A stretch of 48,101 nucleotides of DNA, taken from a virus (Duplodnaviria > Heunggongvirae > Uroviricota > Caudoviricetes). Position numbers and translations under genes: made by a program. Below the pieces are notes generated by a model. That model was not told the origin of the DNA, did not search any database, and saw only the letters and a program-made list of their open reading frames with translations. Location of the stretch: IMG/VR virus record IMGVR_UViG_2939521961_000008. One strand, written 5' to 3'. Shown in pieces: positions 2,794 to 43,100 of the stretch. Position 1 is the first letter of the stretch, and each line of letters starts with the position of its first letter.

Positions 2794-5386
2794 TTGCATA
2801 TTCCTTAGCCCAGCGGGGCAGTGATAACGTCTTAATAGCTGGCCATTCATCGGTATTGAGGCAGTCAGCCAGGGTTCGCAGATTGCGGTGATATTCCAGC
2901 TGACCTGCCAGTTTTGCTTCTTCGCCCATCATGAAAATTTCAACCGGATAACGTCCGCATTCAATAGTTGTGCTGGCAACCAGAAAAACGAAAGTTGGCT
3001 GCACTCCAAACTGTGCTTCATAACCGTCACTGTAGAATGCATCCTGAACGTGATAGCGGTAGTCGTAATAAGCGGTTTTGAATCGTTGAATATCCGCCGT
3101 AGTTTTCACGTCCATGATCCAGTGAAATTCAGGGATAATTTTGTCCGGACGGCACCGACACAAAATTGCTGTTTCAGGATCTTCCCAGTAAATTGATGAT
3201 TCAGCGTGTCCGGCGCTTTCAACAAGCCATTGCCCCAGCGGCAAAGCCATAACGCTCTGATACATGAGTTCAATTTTCCGGCCTTCTTCGGCAGTGATAA
3301 CCGTTTTTCCTGTGCTTGCGCATTCCCTCAGAAACGCTTTCTCTTCTTCTTTTCCGGAGTTTGTCCGGCGGTTAAATTCAGGTGCTACGATAAAGCGGTT
3401 ACTGAATTCTTCCGGCTCAAGTACCCGGCAGTGGAAAGCGGTTCCTAAATCGAGCGTTTTTGTCTTTGTGGTGTCCACGGGGGCATTTTTACGCCACAAA
3501 TACAGTGCCGGAGTATCAGCAATGTCATCGAGCTGAGACTTACTGACACCGGGACCCGCGTGGTAATTCTCATTCGAAATTCCGTAATAAATACCTGGCT
3601 CTATGTCTTCTACGATTACGGGATCTGCGACTTCGCCAGTTTCATCACTGCAATCGCGATGCGGATCGCTGCCAGCATTCTCATTGTGCGGATGTTCAGC
3701 GCCTTCCATTTCCTCCGGATCATTTTCCTTAGCTTCAACCTGACTCTCTTCATCGAATGTTTCCTGGTATGTTGCGTCGCCCATCACCGCACCACAGTCA
3801 GGGCAGTTATCCCCGCCAGTCTGGCCGCAGGCATTGCAGGCTATTTCCGGTTCCTGTTGCACTATTGGCTCAGGTTGATTCATATCCGGGCTGGTTTTTT
3901 CCGTTTCTGGCTGGTTCTGGTACACACAATCGCGAGTCTGGATCCCCTTTACCCATTTCGGATCGTTCGGGTCGCTAATTCTGTCAACAAATTCACCACG
4001 TGATGCAGCAAGCAATTTATCGGCATCGACAGGATTTTTTGATGGAATGTTTTTCCGGGCTTCATGGAGTTCTGCCCGCAGTTCCTGATATTTCGCATCA
4101 ACAGAATTTACCTGTGACTGAGCATCCAGCGGCTGCGTGTCCTGATGATGTTCAGTTGCGTCCGGTTCCATTGTTTCAGCCTCTCCCTGTTCAACTGCCG
4201 TTGTTCCAGATGGTTGCGGTTTTTCTTCATAATCCTGTTTTCCTTCTTCTGTTACTCGCTGCGGCATCGGGGCAGAGGAGCGACCGCAGGCAATATCCAC
4301 GATTTCCGGATCAGGGTTGGCATGATCGGTTTCAGTCAGTACTTTGTTCAGATATTCAGTGACGTGCGCGGGGATGACCTCGATCCCAATTGGTGCTTCT
4401 TTTACGGACGCAACCACGATGGCGCGGGAATAATCCAGCCCGCCAGGCATGGTGATGAATTTGTCGCGGAAAACAGAAAAGGGCGGTTTATTTTCAGCGA
4501 TAATTTCCTCAATGCGTTTAGCGTGTGCCGGATGAAGGTTATAGATGTCCAGATCCATTGAACGGGCCAGTACGCCAGTGGCTACGTCCCGCGCCAGTGA
4601 CGTCAGATCGTGTACGAAACCTTCGCCGCGATCGGTGAGGTTTCCGCCGCCAGCATTAGCACCGGAAGCCGTGCGAGTGATGTGTGAAACACGATTACCC
4701 TTCATCCACTCTTTTGTCAGCAGTCCTCGATCGGTGTAGTCAGCGTTCAGGTATGCTTCGAAAAAAGCAGTTATCAGTCCCAGGTTTGAATTACCAGGAT
4801 TAGGGAAAACTTTGTCAGTGTCACGAACCAGTTTGTGGAGTTCGCGAATTTCCAGCGGGTCGAGCAGGCTGGTTTTGTGGGAAACAGCCAGGGCAGTAAC
4901 AGCCGGTAGTTCTTCAGCCCGAGCAATGTGTAATGCCTGGAGTCCGTCGCGTGAAACGTGCGTTACCGGTTTTTCGCTGCCGTGTTGAGCAAGCCAACGA
5001 ATGGGCAGTTCCTGGCCAGAAATTGGGAGTAGCATATTCTCCTCAATCTCAGTCATGTCTTCGCCGTTGACGTTGGTATTGCCTTGATAGTGAGCGTTGT
5101 CTGGTGCTGCTCCCGGTTTTAGTTCCCATGTCATGGAGTCTTTGCTGAGTTGATAGCGTTCACTCCAGGTAAAATCGATCTCACCTTCAGCGGGCAGGTC
5201 ATTAACGACAGGAAAATTCGTGGCAACAGCTTTAAAATAGCTGCTCAGTTTTTTACCTGACTTAACGATCAGGTAGTCCAGAGTGGCACAGGTCGATTCA
5301 AAATCGTTGCTTGCCCACAGGACGACGTCAGGTTCACCGGATGATTTTTTCGCTTTCCGTAACAGGAAGAGTGGTTTTGTGCTCAT
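2786..5386 (-). CDS. recE: RecE exonuclease VIII, full-length 866 aa
   Basis: 866-aa [32 protein letters not shown]... with C-terminal nuclease region; 8-bp overlap with recT as in Rac. Confidence 0.95.
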
Positions 5387-8818: not shown

Positions 8819-9709
8819 TCAGGCTGCCAGATCATTATTTCCGATGGAAGCATAATAAGCTTTTTCTGCTTCTGCCGGAGGAATATGGCCCAGCCTTTCC
8901 AGCAATCGTCGATTGTTATACCAGTCCACCCACGTTAGTGTGGCCAGTTCCACTTCTGTCCGGTTTTTCCAGCTATTACGGTGTATTACCTCCGCTTTGT
9001 AAAGACCATTGATGCTCTCAGCCATCGCGTTGTCATACGAGTCGCCAGTACTCCCTGTTGATGCCAGTAATCCGGCTTCCTTAAGCCGCTGCGTGTAGGC
9101 CAGCGATACATACTGAGAACCTTTATCACTGTGATGGATTGTGCCGGACGGCCGACGGGCCCACAACGCCTGCTCCAGTGCATCCAGCACGAATGTTGTT
9201 TCCATGGATGATGAGACCTGCCATCCCACGATGTATCCGGCGAACACATCAATGATGAACGCCACATAAACGAAGCCCTGCCATGTGCTTACCCAGGTAA
9301 AATCAGCCACCCACAACTGGTCTGGACGTTCTGCCACGAACTGACGGTTTACGCGGTCGCATGCGGCAACGGCTTTCCGGCTGACGGTAGTGCGGACCTT
9401 TTTACCCCGGAGAACACCGGCAAGTCCCATAACTGCCATGAGACGTGCCACAGTGCATCTGGCCACTCTGATACCTTCCCGTAACAACTGACGCCAGACT
9501 TTACGCACACCGTATACCTGGTGATTTTCATCGTATACGCGCTGTATCTCTTTCTTCAGCCAGTCATCGTGCTGCGCACGGGCACTGCGTTTATCCGGAT
9601 GATGTCGCTGTTGCTGACAATGGTAATACGTTGACGGGGCAATATGCAGTTCGCTGCATACCGGTCCGACCCCGTACTGCTCACGCAGCTTATCCAGCAG
9701 TGGCATCAT
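8819..9709 (-). CDS. IS3-family transposase OrfB (DDE integrase domain), 296 aa
   Basis: DDE-type catalytic core (…WVADFTW…, …HSDKGSQY…, …DNAMAES…); overlaps orfA end. Confidence 0.9.
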
Positions 9710-10032
9710 TTTTTCCAGAGGCGGTCGAACTCCGCCTTCGCAAAATAAGCGGAAGCCTGGCGAAGGATATCGTTACTGCGGCGCAGTTCACGATTTTCAC
9801 GTTCCAGCTCTTTCAGACGCTGACGTTCAGCACTGGTGAGCCCACCATCACCGCCCCCGGTATCCCGCTCATGCTGGCGAACCCAGACACGCAGAGTCTC
9901 CGGCGTACAGCCAATCTTTGGGGCAATGGAACAAATTGCCGCCCACTGTGAGTCATATTCATCCTGACTTTCCAGAACCATACGAATCGCCCGCTGACGG
10001 ACTTCGGGGGAAAAACGAGTATTTTTAGTCAT
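9706..10032 (-). CDS. IS3-family transposase OrfA (HTH), 108 aa
   Basis: [22 protein letters not shown]... with leucine-zipper-like C-terminus; ends in GGAAAAAATGA where orfB begins (frameshift window). Confidence 0.9.
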
Positions 10033-15173: not shown

Positions 15174-15639
15174 ACTGGCCTGAAGCATTTGCAATTACAG
15201 GCGTTGCTATGGCTATCGCTTTTTTAGTATATGTTATTTGTCGGTGAGGGTAAAAACGTTCGCCGGGATTAACACCAAAGGAGGGAATATGTCGGATGAT
15301 ATATCACTGGCAATGGAAGGTGCGCTGGCTGTTGTTGCTGTTGTGGGCGTTTACTGCCTGGTTGTGTTTTTGATGGATCGACTAGGGAACTGAATTCATT
15401 ACGATATGGGAATTCCCATATCGGGTAAAAACGGTTTGCGGGAAAAGGAGAGTTAAGTAGAATTGCTGCGGGTGCTTGAGGCTATCTGTCTCAGGCATGA
15501 ACACCAAAAGGCAGATAGAGAAAAGCCCCAGTTAACATTACGCGTCCTGCAAGACGCTTAACATTAATCTGAGGCCCAATCTATGTCTCACAAATGTAGG
15601 TTAGCCTCTTACGTGCCGAAAGGCAAGGAGAAGCAGGCT

Positions 15640-15795
15640 ATGAAGCAGCAAAAGGCGATGTTAATCGCCCTGATCGTCATCTGTTTAACCGTCATAGTGA
15701 CGGCACTGGTAACGAGGAAAGACCTCTGCGAGGTACGAATCCGAACCGGCCAGACGGAGGTCGCTGTCTTCACAGCTTACGAACCTGAGGAGTAA
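15640..15795 (+). CDS. hokD: Hok/Gef-family type I toxin (HokD/RelF-like), 51 aa; overlapping mok-like frame begins at 15583
   Basis: MKQQKAMLIALIVICLTVIVTALVTRKDLCEVRIRTGQTEVAVFTAYEPEE: single TM helix plus conserved Hok periplasmic tail; longer overlapping ORF in the same frame. Confidence 0.8.
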   Translation: MKQQKAMLIALIVICLTVIVTALVTRKDLCEVRIRTGQTEVAVFTAYEPEE

Positions 15796-19261: not shown

Positions 19262-19428
19262 TTTTTTTGTTTACTGTTTATTAAAAATACTACTGCATGG
19301 TGAATCCCCCTGTGCGGAGGGGCAATCAGCAACCAGGTATATGTGATAATCGCGGATTCAGGTGCTGATACTGAATTCACCGGGAGGCACCCGGCACCAT
19401 GCAAGAAAAAGAATGTGCATGCAAACAT

Positions 19429-19452
19429 GCCCCTCTCCGGAGGGGCTTTTTT
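19429..19452 (+). terminator. rho-independent terminator-like hairpin
   Basis: GCCCCTC-TCCG-GAGGGGC followed by TTTTTT. Confidence 0.5.
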
Positions 19453-19667
19453 ATGGGTAAAAAATGCCCGAATGGGTTCGGGCAATAGCATGAGATACTG
19501 ATATTGTTGTGTTGTTATCGTGTGGATTTTAACCAGGGTTTATCAGGCTGCGCAACTGCGTGGCCTTTTTTCATTTCTTGGGCTGTAGTCCCCGTGTGTC
19601 ATTCAGGCTTCCGGACTACAGCCCACTCCATATCTGATTTAATACACTATCCCGGCCGGGAGGAATA

Positions 19668-39372: not shown

Positions 39373-39950
39373 ACACGGCAGCGGAAGCCATCCGTGCCCT
39401 GTCGATGCAGATGCCGGGATTCCGCCGTCAGATGAACGAAGGCTGGTACCAGATACGTATTGCCGGTTATGACATGGCACCGGAGGCGGTGTATGCCCGC
39501 CTTCACGAACAACTGGGTGAGGGAACGGTCATCCATATTGTGCCGCGACTGGCCGGTGCAGGGAAAGGCGGACTGCAGATTGTGCTGGGGGCGGCAGCCA
39601 TCGTGGGCTCTTTCTTCACCGCCGGCGCAACGATGGCGTTATGGGGTTCAGCCCTGGCAGCCGGCGGTTTTTCTGCCACCACGATGCTGTTTTCACTGGG
39701 GGCCAGCATGATACTGGGCGGTGTGGCCCAGATGCTGGCCCCGAAGGCAAAGACGCCGGAGTACAAAAGTACGGATAACGGTAAACAGAACACGTATTTT
39801 TCGTCACTGGACAACATGATTGCCCAGGGGAACCCGATGCCGGTGCCTTACGGTGAAATGCTGGTTGGCTCCCGGCGAATCTCCCAGGACATCAGCACCC
39901 GTGATGAAGGTGGTGGCGGGAAGGTGGTGGTTATCGGGCGGCAGGGGTAA
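39270..39950 (+). CDS. I: tail tip assembly protein I
   Basis: Lambda order; Gly/Ala-rich hydrophobic middle segment. Confidence 0.9.
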   Translation: MATTNAFCLASPPLARICLHGDLQRFGRRLSLYVNTAAEAIRALSMQMPGFRRQMNEGWYQIRIAGYDMAPEAVYARLHEQLGEGTVIHIVPRLAGAGKGGLQIVLGAAAIVGSFFTAGATMALWGSALAAGGFSATTMLFSLGASMILGGVAQMLAPKAKTPEYKSTDNGKQNTYFSSLDNMIAQGNPMPVPYGEMLVGSRRISQDISTRDEGGGGKVVVIGRQG

Positions 39951-40195
39951 AGCATAAAAAAATCCCGCAGTGTATGGAGGCTGCGGGAACAGAAAATGAA
40001 GATTAACCACAGGGGGTTTTGTTTTTATTGGCCCGAAAAAACTGTAACGCCCGGGAATGATATCTGCCACGGGGCGTACAGAAAATGTGAAGAAATTCAG
40101 AAATTTTATTCCGTCATGACACAGGCACCCTCCGGGGTGCCTGTCGTTTTTGGGGCATAAACAGATTCAGACATCAGACAGGAGAGGGGGACAGA

Positions 40196-43100
40196 GTGGG
40201 TAAAGGTGGCGGCAGGGCGCACACGCCGGTAGAGGCAAAGGACAATCTTAAGTCCACGCAGATGATGAGCGTGATTGACGCCATTGGTGAAGGGCCGATT
40301 GAAGGTCCGGTGAAGGGGCTGCAGAGTATTCTGGTGAACAAAACCCCGCTGACGGACACGGACGGTAATCCTGTGATACATGGTGTGACAGCGGTCTGGC
40401 GCGCCGGGGAGCAGGAGCAGACACCGCCGGAAGGTTTTGAGTCATCCGGCTCTGAAACCGCACTGGGCGTGGAAGTGACGAAGGCAAAGCCGGTGACGCG
40501 CACCATTACGTCCGCGAACATTGACCGCCTGCGGGTCACCTTCGGGGTGCAGTCACTGGTGCAGACCACCTCACAGGGTGACCGTAACCCGGCATCCGTC
40601 CGCCTGCTGATTCAGCTGCAGCGTAACGGTAACTGGGTGACGGAAAAGGATGTCACCATTAACGGCAAGACCACCTCACAGTTCCTCGCTTCGGTGATTC
40701 TGGATAATCTGCCTCCCCGCCCCTTTAACATCCGGATGGTCAGGGAGACGGCGGACAGCACCACGGACCAGCTGCAGAATAAGACGCTCTGGTCGTCATA
40801 CACCGAAATCATCGATGTGAAACAGTGCTACCCGAACACGGCGATTGTGGGGCTGCAGGTGGATGCGGAGCAGTTTGGCGGTCAGCAGATGACGGTGAAC
40901 TACCATATCCGCGGTCGCATCATCCAGGTACCGTCAAACTATGACCCGGAAAAACGCACGTACAGCGGCATCTGGGACGGCAGCCTGAAACCGGCATACA
41001 GCAACAACCCGGCCTGGTGCCTGTGGGACATGCTGACTCACCCGCGCTACGGCATGGGAAAACGTCTGGGGGCGGCAGACGTGGACAAATGGGCGCTGTA
41101 TGCCATTGCGCAGTACTGCGACCAGACGGTCCCGGATGGTTTCGGGGGCACAGAGCCGCGGATGACCTTTAATGCGTACCTGTCACAACAGCGTAAGGCG
41201 TGGGACGTTCTCAGTGATTTCTGCTCGGCGATGCGCTGTATGCCGGTATGGAACGGCCAGACGCTGACGTTCGTTCAGGACCGCCCGTCGGATGTGGTGT
41301 GGCCGTACACCAACTGCGATGTGGTGGTGGATGATAACGGCGTGGGGTTTCGCTACAGCTTCAGCGCCCTGAAGGACCGCCACACGGCGGTGGAGGTGAA
41401 TTACACCGACCCGCAGAACGGCTGGCAGACCTCCACGGAACTGGTGGAAGACCCGGAAGCCATACTGCGCTACGGGCGCAACCTGCTGAAGATGGATGCG
41501 TTCGGTTGCACCAGTCGCGGTCAGGCCCACCGTGCCGGGCTGTGGGTGATAAAGACCGGACTGCTGGAAACGCAGACGGTGGATTTCACGCTCGGGTCAC
41601 AGGGGCTGCGTCACACACCCGGTGACATTATTGAAATCTGTGATAACGACTATGCCGGGACCATGACCGGCGGACGTATCCTGTCCATCGATGCCGCCAG
41701 CCGCACCCTGACACTGGACCGTGAGGTGACCCTGCCGGAGACAGGTGCCGCCACGGTGAACCTGATTAACGGCAGCGGTAAGCCGGTGAGCGTGGCCATC
41801 ACTGCACACCCCGCGCCGGACCGGATACAGGTCAGCACCCTGCCTGATGGTGTGGAGACATACGGTGTATGGGGACTCTCCCTGCCGTCACTGCGTCGTC
41901 GCCTGTTCCGCTGTGTCTCCATCCGGGAAAACACGGACGGCACCTTTGCCATCACGGCGGTGCAGCACGTACCGGAAAAGGAAGCCATCGTGGATAACGG
42001 GGCCAGCTTTGAGCCGCAGTCAGGCACCCTGAACAGCGTCATCCCTCCGGCAGTGCAGCACCTGACGGTGGAGGTGAGCGCAGCTGACGGTCAGTATCTG
42101 GCGCAGGCGAAATGGGACACGCCGAAGGTGGTGAAGGGCGTGAGCTTTATGCTTCGCCTGACCGTGGTCGCGGATGACGGCAGTGAGCGGCTGGTCAGCA
42201 CGGCCCGGACGACGGAAACCACATACCGCTTCACGCAACTGGCGCCGGGGAACTACAGGCTGACAGTCCGGGCGGTAAATGCGTGGGGGCAGCAGGGCGA
42301 TCCGGCGTCGGTATCGTTCCGGATTGCCGCACCGGCAGCGCCGTCACAGATTGAGCTGACACCGGGCTATTTTCAGATAACAGCGGTCCCGCGTCTTGCG
42401 GTGTATGACCCGACGGTACAGTTTGAGTTCTGGTTTTCGGAAACGCGGATTACCGATATCAGGCAGGTTGAAACCACAGCCCGCTACCTTGGCACGGGGC
42501 TGTACTGGATAGCCGCCAGTATCAATATCAAACCGGGCCATGATTATTACTTTTATATCCGCAGTGTGAACACCGTTGGCAAATCGGCATTTGTGGAGGC
42601 TGTTGGCCAGCCGAGTGATGATGCATCCGGCTATCTGGATTTTTTCAAAGGAGAGATAGGGAAAACCCATCTGGCTCAGGAGTTGTGGACTCAGATTGAT
42701 AACGGTCAGCTTGCGCCTGACCTGGCGGAAATCAGAACGTCCATCACGGATGTCAGTAATGAAATCACGCAGACCGTCAATAAGAAACTGGAAGACCAGA
42801 GTGCAGCGATCCAGCAGATACAGAAGGTTCAGGTTGATACAAATAATAATCTGAACAGCATGTGGGCTGTGAAGCTGCAACAGATGAAGGACGGACGCCT
42901 TTATATTGCGGGTATCGGTGCCGGTATTGAGAATACGCCAGCAGGAATGCAGAGTCAGGTGCTGCTGGCGGCAGACAGGATTGCGATGATTAATCCTGCG
43001 AATGGCAACACAAAGCCGATGTTTGTTGGTCAGGGCGATCAGATATTCATGAACGACGTGTTCCTGAAACGCCTGACGGCTCCCACCATTACCAGCGGCG

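Follow-up and report, generated by a model that had tools for sequence, protein, structure and literature searches.

A predicted antisense small RNA gene of the EcOnc22/23/24 family between genes I and J of a Stx1a-type lambdoid prophage

Organization of the I-J spacer

The DNA analysed here (48,101 nt, referred to as the window) derives from a lambdoid EHEC prophage of the Stx1a type, and positions 39800-40350 are 100% identical to several Stx1a-converting phages. A spacer of 245 bp separates the end of gene I (39950) from the start of gene J (40196), versus 60 bp in lambda (I ends at 15444 and J starts at 15505). Both distances had been given correctly in the initial annotation, the lambda value as about 60 bp, and the comparison with lambda that it proposed as a check confirms that the spacing differs and that the 60-bp lambda spacer is without the cassette described below. 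Relative to lambda, the insertion consists of this cassette, at roughly 39951-40115. Of 5426 complete E. coli genomes, 786 contain the spacer, and carriers have a median of 4 copies; it is unannotated in RefSeq and in all of the top E. coli matches. The window allele is carried by O26:H11 or O103 strains, for example strain 11368 (NC_013361 928586-928830). The 245-nt sequence folds better than its shuffled versions on both strands (z of -3.1 and -2.3). The features of the locus are as follows.

39270/39369-39950, plus strand: gene I, with stop codon TAA at 39948-39950
39956-40050, minus strand: predicted sRNA, an EcOnc22-family allele of about 93-95 nt (5' end inferred from the -10 box), in the order 5'-GCGUUACAGUUUUUU, variable core, GUUAAUCUUCAU, terminator, U7
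39956-39988, minus strand: intrinsic terminator of the predicted sRNA (stem 39981-39988/39963-39970, 10-nt loop, U7)
39996-40007, minus strand: conserved U-rich motif GUUAAUCUUCAU, directly 5' of the terminator (the plus strand reads ATGAAGATTAAC)
39996-40160, plus strand: 54-aa open reading frame, spurious and not a gene
40008-40035, minus strand: variable core, the presumed seed, with an A-rich (ARN-like) block CAAUAAAAACAAAAC at 40016-40030
40036-40050, minus strand: conserved 5' end GCGUUACAG plus U6 (mean column identity 0.80)
40057-40062, minus strand: -10 box TATCAT (5/6 match to TATAAT)
40086-40101, no strand assigned: invariant CRP-like palindrome TGTGA-N6-TCAGA, centred at 40093.5, about -43.5 from the predicted start
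40121-40151, plus strand: terminator-like hairpin of 10 bp (7 of them G-C) with a UCCG loop, followed by CG-UUUUU
40168-40195, plus strand: J leader, with the 7-nt repeat CAGACAT/CAGACAG at 40168-40181 and the Shine-Dalgarno sequence GGAGAGGGGGA at 40181-40191
40196, plus strand: GTG start codon of gene J, as in the RefSeq annotation of an identical O26:H11 locus

A probable small RNA gene on the minus strand

The I-J spacer very probably contains an independent sRNA gene, antisense to the tail genes and predicted for the window as a divergent allele of EcOnc22, EcOnc23 and EcOnc24 of strain Sakai. The hairpin proximal to I (the G+C-rich 8-bp stem TCCCGCAG/CTGCGGGA) had been recognized previously, but it is located at 39963-39988, 10 nt to the left of the interval 39973-39998 first assigned to it, and the run of seven A residues that precedes it on the plus strand (39956-39962) had been missed. 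Because this run reads as U7 on the opposite strand, the hairpin is a Rho-independent terminator on the minus strand only; the promoter and terminator scan overlooked it because of its 10-nt loop. The U-rich motif GUUAAUCUUCAU immediately upstream is identical to that of Sakai at 12 of 12 positions. The module bound by Hfq is known to include a U-rich stretch ahead of the terminator hairpin (Ishikawa 2012, cited in PMC4104026); in the window, the terminator has a 3' U-tail of at least 6 (U7), with UUAAUCUUCAUUUUCUGUU upstream of it. By its sequence, this combination of U-rich motif, terminator and U-tail with an ARN-like A-rich block would be expected of an Hfq client. The predicted fold of the RNA leaves the 5' 60 nt unstructured, followed by the terminator.

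In the alignment column of the -10 box, cassette types C08, C25 and C36 have a perfect TATAAT, Sakai has AATAAT and other types have CATAAT. The promoter has no good -35 box, and it was not called by a consensus promoter scan at a threshold of 9/12. The TGTGA-N6-TCAGA palindrome upstream is the single such site in the 48-kb window. In a lysogen, sigma-70 RNA polymerase would start about 7 nt downstream of TATCAT, near 40050, probably with the help of a dimeric factor (CRP-like, as a candidate) bound to this palindrome in place of a usable -35 box, and would transcribe leftward for about 95 nt to the TCCCGCAG/CTGCGGGA hairpin and its U7 tail (39988-39956).

A further hairpin, at about 40043-40082 of the minus strand, has its arms on either side of the sRNA -10 box, and is terminated by GCGUUACAG plus U6. 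Strong folding is seen in the window type (z about -2.8) and in types C34-C38 (z from -2.5 to -4.1), the arms apparently co-varying (ACAG/CUGU, AGUG/CACU, ACCA/UGGU); in the Sakai type the hairpin is weak or absent. This hairpin could be an insulating terminator against antisense read-in.

Correspondence to EcOnc22, EcOnc23 and EcOnc24 of strain Sakai

Orphan Hfq-binding sites of Sakai include EcOnc22 (in prophage Sp15), EcOnc23 (Sp14) and EcOnc24 (Sp11) (Tree 2014, PMC4104026 Table S2), which are represented by Hfq-CRAC peaks and an ~85-nt northern band and are destabilised in a delta-hfq strain (PMC4104026); a 2021 review (PMC7873438) lists all three as northern- and CRAC-confirmed with no targets assigned. 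All three are located between I and J in their respective prophages and are encoded antisense to the tail genes. The homologous Sakai RNA at the EcOnc22 locus, predicted from sequence alone (NC_002695.2 2902836-2902926; L002), is 91 nt long, slightly longer than the northern estimate; the other two Sakai copies lie at 2676767-2676857 and 2166817-2166907, all three on the plus strand of that record. After a coordinate correction of +135, the Hfq-CRAC peak covers nt 14-74 of this prediction, and the reads GCCTGAAAAATAACTCCATAACGTTAATCTTCA (old coordinates 2902717-2902749), TAATCTTCATCGTTCTCTCCCGCAGCTCCGC and TTCTCTCCCGCAGCTCCGCTAACTCTGCG agree with the antisense prediction at every base; they come from the RNase E-CLASH data of Waters 2017 (PMC5286369, supplementary file 9).

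The correction is needed because five anchors show an offset, which places the Table S2 coordinates on an older version of the genome. The offset is +135 to +139 at AsxR, +137 to +146 at AgvB1, at least +114 at EcOnc04/STnc100 in Sp11, +123 to +130 at StxS against the tR' hairpin in Sp15, and exactly +135 at the EcOnc22 locus according to the CLASH read sequences; the EcOnc47 anchor was uninformative. Both the anchor calibration and the CLASH reads rule out the Table S2 coordinates at face value, which would put the Hfq peak antisense to the hairpin that precedes J. An RNA running from an upstream TAAAAT to the hairpin around the -10 box and its U6 was also rejected, as it requires a shift of +75, against every anchor. 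Relative to the current RefSeq sequence, the Sakai sRNA coordinates of Tree 2014 and Waters 2017 are displaced by +135 at 2.90 Mb, by about +137 at 1.27-1.94 Mb and by about +125 at 2.93 Mb, and features are mis-placed when the published values are used directly.

The predicted sRNA of the window shares with EcOnc22/23/24 the I-J locus, the antisense strand, the promoter architecture, the 5' end, the GUUAAUCUUCAU motif and the terminator stem. It aligns with the Sakai RNA from end to end (65% identity overall, 82% over the terminator plus tail), but the core is only 39% identical to that of Sakai, and the terminator loop and the linker differ as well. One CLASH read from Sp14 (old coordinates 2676722-2676752) is located beyond the U7, antisense to the I 3' end, a sign that the terminator of the sRNA lets some transcription through.

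The element is a divergent member of the EcOnc22/23/24 family, which is absent from Rfam. A search of Rfam up to E = 1 found no match in 39500-40700, nor in the three Sakai copies. The searchable literature was found to contain no explicit gene model, and nothing on the invariant palindrome, tandem arrays, seed diversity or occurrence in E. albertii; these points refine a kind of element that was already known.

Conservation and duplication of the cassette

Two motif scans of IMG/VR returned 149 loci, 132 of them with the cassette. In all 132 contigs it lies between the sequence encoding the I C-terminus and the start of J. The contigs that seemed to depart from this have a spacer whose second terminator is a variant, or an inserted IS. 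At one locus (L106, about 4715-4900) an IS3-family transposase gene stands beside the sRNA cassette, in place of the pre-J segment.

Spacer length rises from about 235 bp for a single cassette, the arrangement in the window, to about 910 bp for four cassettes in tandem. Four were found at L086, L046, L027, L056 and L119, and two or three at L042 and L022. Tandem cassettes within one spacer can differ in core type and have remnants of the I 3' end between them; the resemblance of the cassette junctions to the 3' end of I defines the unit of duplication.

In an alignment of 59 unique cassettes in antisense orientation, the order is AATAAAAWT-TCTGA-N6-TCACA-TTT, 23-24 nt, the -10 box, a variable discriminator of about 6 nt, GCGTTACAG-T6, a variable core with an A-rich block, GTTAATCTTCAT, a linker, and an 8-bp terminator stem enclosing a free loop and followed by T6-9. 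At 95 of 95 sites with the A-run and hairpin (58 unique spacers, with no pre-selection for the palindrome), the palindrome lies 118-134 nt away. Column identities were computed for a subset of 94 loci fetched by a query lying outside the RNA. The most conserved elements are the palindrome half-sites (mean column identity 1.00, 10/10 columns), GTTAATCTTCAT (0.93), the terminator stems (0.89-0.97) and the -10 box (0.82); the variable ones are the core (0.65), the terminator loop (0.57) and the discriminator (0.55).

The main terminator stem has the identical 8 bp under 18 distinct loop sequences, and a second class, TCTCCCGT.../...ACGGGAGA, has a different self-complementary stem with four double changes in register. 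RNAalifold found no consensus structure among the cassettes, since the stems are either invariant or out of register, and the support from covariation consists of the two terminator classes only. The cores fall into at least 7 clusters at 80% identity or more.

A first scan of species-representative genomes for exact matches did not find the cassette. A second, degenerate scan yielded, besides some chance matches, E. albertii and two contigs that are probably contaminants. The copy in E. albertii NBRC 107761 (L154) is plausible and has yet another core type. Complete cassettes are also present on a 460-bp contig of Parendozoicomonas haliclonae (L153) and a 3.4-kb contig of Streptomyces flavalbus (L156), most likely because of contamination of these assemblies by E. 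coli or phage DNA.

A candidate operator

The consensus site for CRP is TGTGA-N6-TCACA, and a class II site is centred at -41.5, about 29.5 bp upstream of the edge of the -10 hexamer. TGTGA-N6-TCAGA matches this consensus at 9 of 10 positions, with the pattern of a dimeric site. Its half-sites are invariant, the right one always being TCAGA, and the N6 between them has at least 7 variants. The distance from the centre of the palindrome to the edge of the -10 box is 31.5 bp in the window and 32.5 bp in most alleles, which puts the centre at about -43.5 in the window and -44.5 in Sakai and most alleles rather than at -41.5. Because this spacing exceeds class II geometry by about 2-3 bp, control of the sRNA promoter by CRP is rated low despite the strong resemblance of the site; it can be proposed only tentatively, with the palindrome as a candidate operator, and the balance is somewhat against it.

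Targets and mode of action

The Sakai homologues exist as RNAs that are bound by Hfq and depend on it for stability (PMC4104026), and they occur in RNase E-associated RNA-RNA chimeras (PMC5286369). The sRNA of the window is accordingly modelled on them as a putative Hfq-dependent RNA that would act in trans by base pairing, with a constant scaffold (the 5' GCGUUACAG-U6, the GUUAAUCUUCAU motif and the terminator) surrounding an allele-specific core that would act as the seed. As the core is shared with Sakai to such a limited extent, the window allele would have targets different from those of Sakai. Chimera partners in the CLASH data are yjbJ, ECs4701, ECs4397 and ECs5349, each chimera being represented by only 1-2 reads. 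In the yjbJ chimera, the Sakai core sequence CCAUAACGUU is perfectly complementary to AACGUUAUGG, a site inside the yjbJ coding region. A scan for duplexes between the sRNA body and the 165 translation-initiation regions of the window found none better than those of shuffled RNAs.

The sRNA might instead be a cis-antisense regulator of the late polycistronic mRNA, in its own prophage or in co-resident ones, either by pairing at the I-J junction, leading to processing (for example by RNase III) and altered J expression or mRNA stability, or by promoter collision. It is perfectly complementary to the late transcript, the RNase E data contain tail-sense reads from the I 3' UTR, and EHEC genomes have several copies (the median of 4 among carriers). 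The fixed I-J position in 132/132 contigs is also in keeping with a role in cis, but is explained equally well by recombination in the conserved flanking genes. The end of the sRNA is about 145 nt upstream of the Shine-Dalgarno sequence of J and overlaps neither coding nor initiation sequences. The earlier suggestion of a regulatory element affecting J expression finds no support here. Dependence on Hfq, ARN and U-rich modules and a constant scaffold with a hypervariable core are what trans-acting sRNAs typically show, and regulation in cis is accordingly considered unlikely.

The predicted sRNA gene may also be one unit of something larger. The I-J junction could serve as an array site for sRNAs, where one to four tandem cassettes with their own promoters and terminators share an operator and a constant scaffold for Hfq binding and have swappable seed cores, although the chance that this is so seems small. 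If it were, prophages would plug different targets in the host or in rival prophages into one shared, possibly cAMP-CRP-responsive, input; in a variant of the same reading, the RNAs would act allele-specifically on the late I-J transcripts of competing prophages.

Features of the plus strand

The hairpin that precedes J, ACAGGCACCC-TCCG-GGGTGCCTGT, was described accurately in the initial annotation as a 10-bp stem with a T-run; it occupies 40121-40144 and continues as CG-TTTTT to 40151. It is the sole terminator-like site on the plus strand in 39500-40700. Only the J-proximal end of the spacer contains it, outside the repeated cassette, and its stem is kept in 23 pre-J variants. The 60-bp spacer of lambda has a smaller counterpart before J (ACCGCC-TGCG-GGCGGT-TTTGTCATTT, a hairpin and T-run), from which the hairpin is considered an ancestral feature of the I-J junction and not part of the insertion. 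By the general biology of lambda late transcription, it would stop polymerase without Q modification before J and would be read through in lytic growth.

The analogous hairpin in lambda, and the quality of the pre-J hairpin as a plus-strand terminator by sequence, might suggest that the spacer is punctuation only, both hairpins being attenuators or mRNA stabilisers that set the ratio of I to J without a separate gene. This is very improbable: the U-run of the I-proximal hairpin is on the minus strand only, the Hfq-bound and CLASH reads of Sakai come from the minus (antisense) strand, and the -10 box, the palindrome and the tandem duplication of the cassette are left unexplained.

The J leader varies on its own account. 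Depending on the prophage, 2, 3 or 4 copies of the 7-nt unit CAGACAT precede the J Shine-Dalgarno sequence, giving a pre-J segment of 93/94, 100 or 106/108 nt (at loci such as L102), and this variation in copy number could change the translation of J.

The 54-aa open reading frame at 39996-40160 is present with the translation originally quoted, but it is no gene. Its length of 54 aa is limited to the exact subtype of the window among related single-cassette spacers with a homologous ATG. A 1-nt indel in the nearest relatives shortens it to 31 aa and changes the C-terminus; elsewhere it is 39 aa (Sakai type), 29 aa or 10-17 aa long, and several alleles have ACG for ATG. The reading frames of the window and of Sakai pass through the conserved 3' block in different frames. 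Neither the window peptide nor a related one matched anything in searches of PHROG and Pfam. The start 'MKIN' recurs because the conserved sRNA motif GUUAAUCUUCAU, read on the other strand, encodes it. That the ORF is a translated protein-coding moron is therefore hardly credible: it has an ATG and the 'MKIN' start is found in many spacers, but neither its length nor its frame is conserved, frame-shifting indels are tolerated, its only Shine-Dalgarno-like sequence sits in a hairpin stem, and no PHROG or Pfam family or RefSeq annotation corresponds to it.

Relationship to morons and to other prophage-encoded small RNAs

The initial annotation had suggested an inserted moron. The cassette is indeed a self-contained unit that enlarges the spacer relative to lambda, but its cargo is a minus-strand sRNA gene, not a peptide. 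Like the morons of lambdoid phages (Juhala et al. 2000; Hendrix), which are expressed from the prophage, it has an inferred promoter of its own and a terminator, and is located between genes that are adjacent in lambda. It differs from them in its cargo, an RNA that is non-coding and lies on the opposite strand, and in its capacity for tandem repetition, up to 4 times.

Regulation of virulence in EHEC and EPEC is increasingly traced to prophage sRNAs, among them AgvB, AsxR, StxS, HnrS and Pas. The EcOnc22/23/24 family now gains an exact gene model, comprising strand, promoter, candidate operator and terminator, which should make it easier to delete copies in a targeted way, to construct promoter fusions and to look for the targets of individual alleles. 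The family is widespread (786/5426 complete E. coli genomes, as well as E. albertii), forms tandem arrays and has at least 7 seed types.

AgvB and AsxR resemble the predicted sRNA in being a prophage-encoded, Hfq-bound family of short RNAs with a constant scaffold (at the 3' end in AgvB/AsxR) and a variable targeting region. They differ in their location at the PR' moron site, convergent with STnc100, and in their length of 51-60 nt versus about 90-95 nt; a sponge function has been shown for AgvB/AsxR. Identity of the I-J sRNA with either was rejected, as there was no sequence similarity and no match to their covariance models (RF02702/RF02703) and they occupy the PR' moron site, not the I-J junction.

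HnrS and the Pas sRNAs (PasA-D) are likewise multicopy sRNAs of the late regions of lambdoid prophages in attaching-effacing E. coli. Their copy number grows with the number of prophages, and none has been reported at I-J. The I-J sRNA is not HnrS, which is EcOnc10/11/12, 66 nt long and at a different locus in Sp9, Sp10 and Sp12 (PMC13502914), nor, by position, is it PasA, PasC or PasD, which are adjacent to Q and the lysis genes (bioRxiv 10.64898/2026.05.13.724894). A machine-learning paper (PMC12711010) deals with EcOnc27 and not with the I-J locus.

Several other known RNA elements are present in the window. STnc100 (19269-19458, plus strand) is convergent with AgvB (19459-19520, minus strand), the RalA antitoxin sRNA is located at 1557-1735 and sok at 15470-15645 (both on the plus strand), and an ALIL/IS3 frameshift pseudoknot is found at 9635-9751 on the minus strand.
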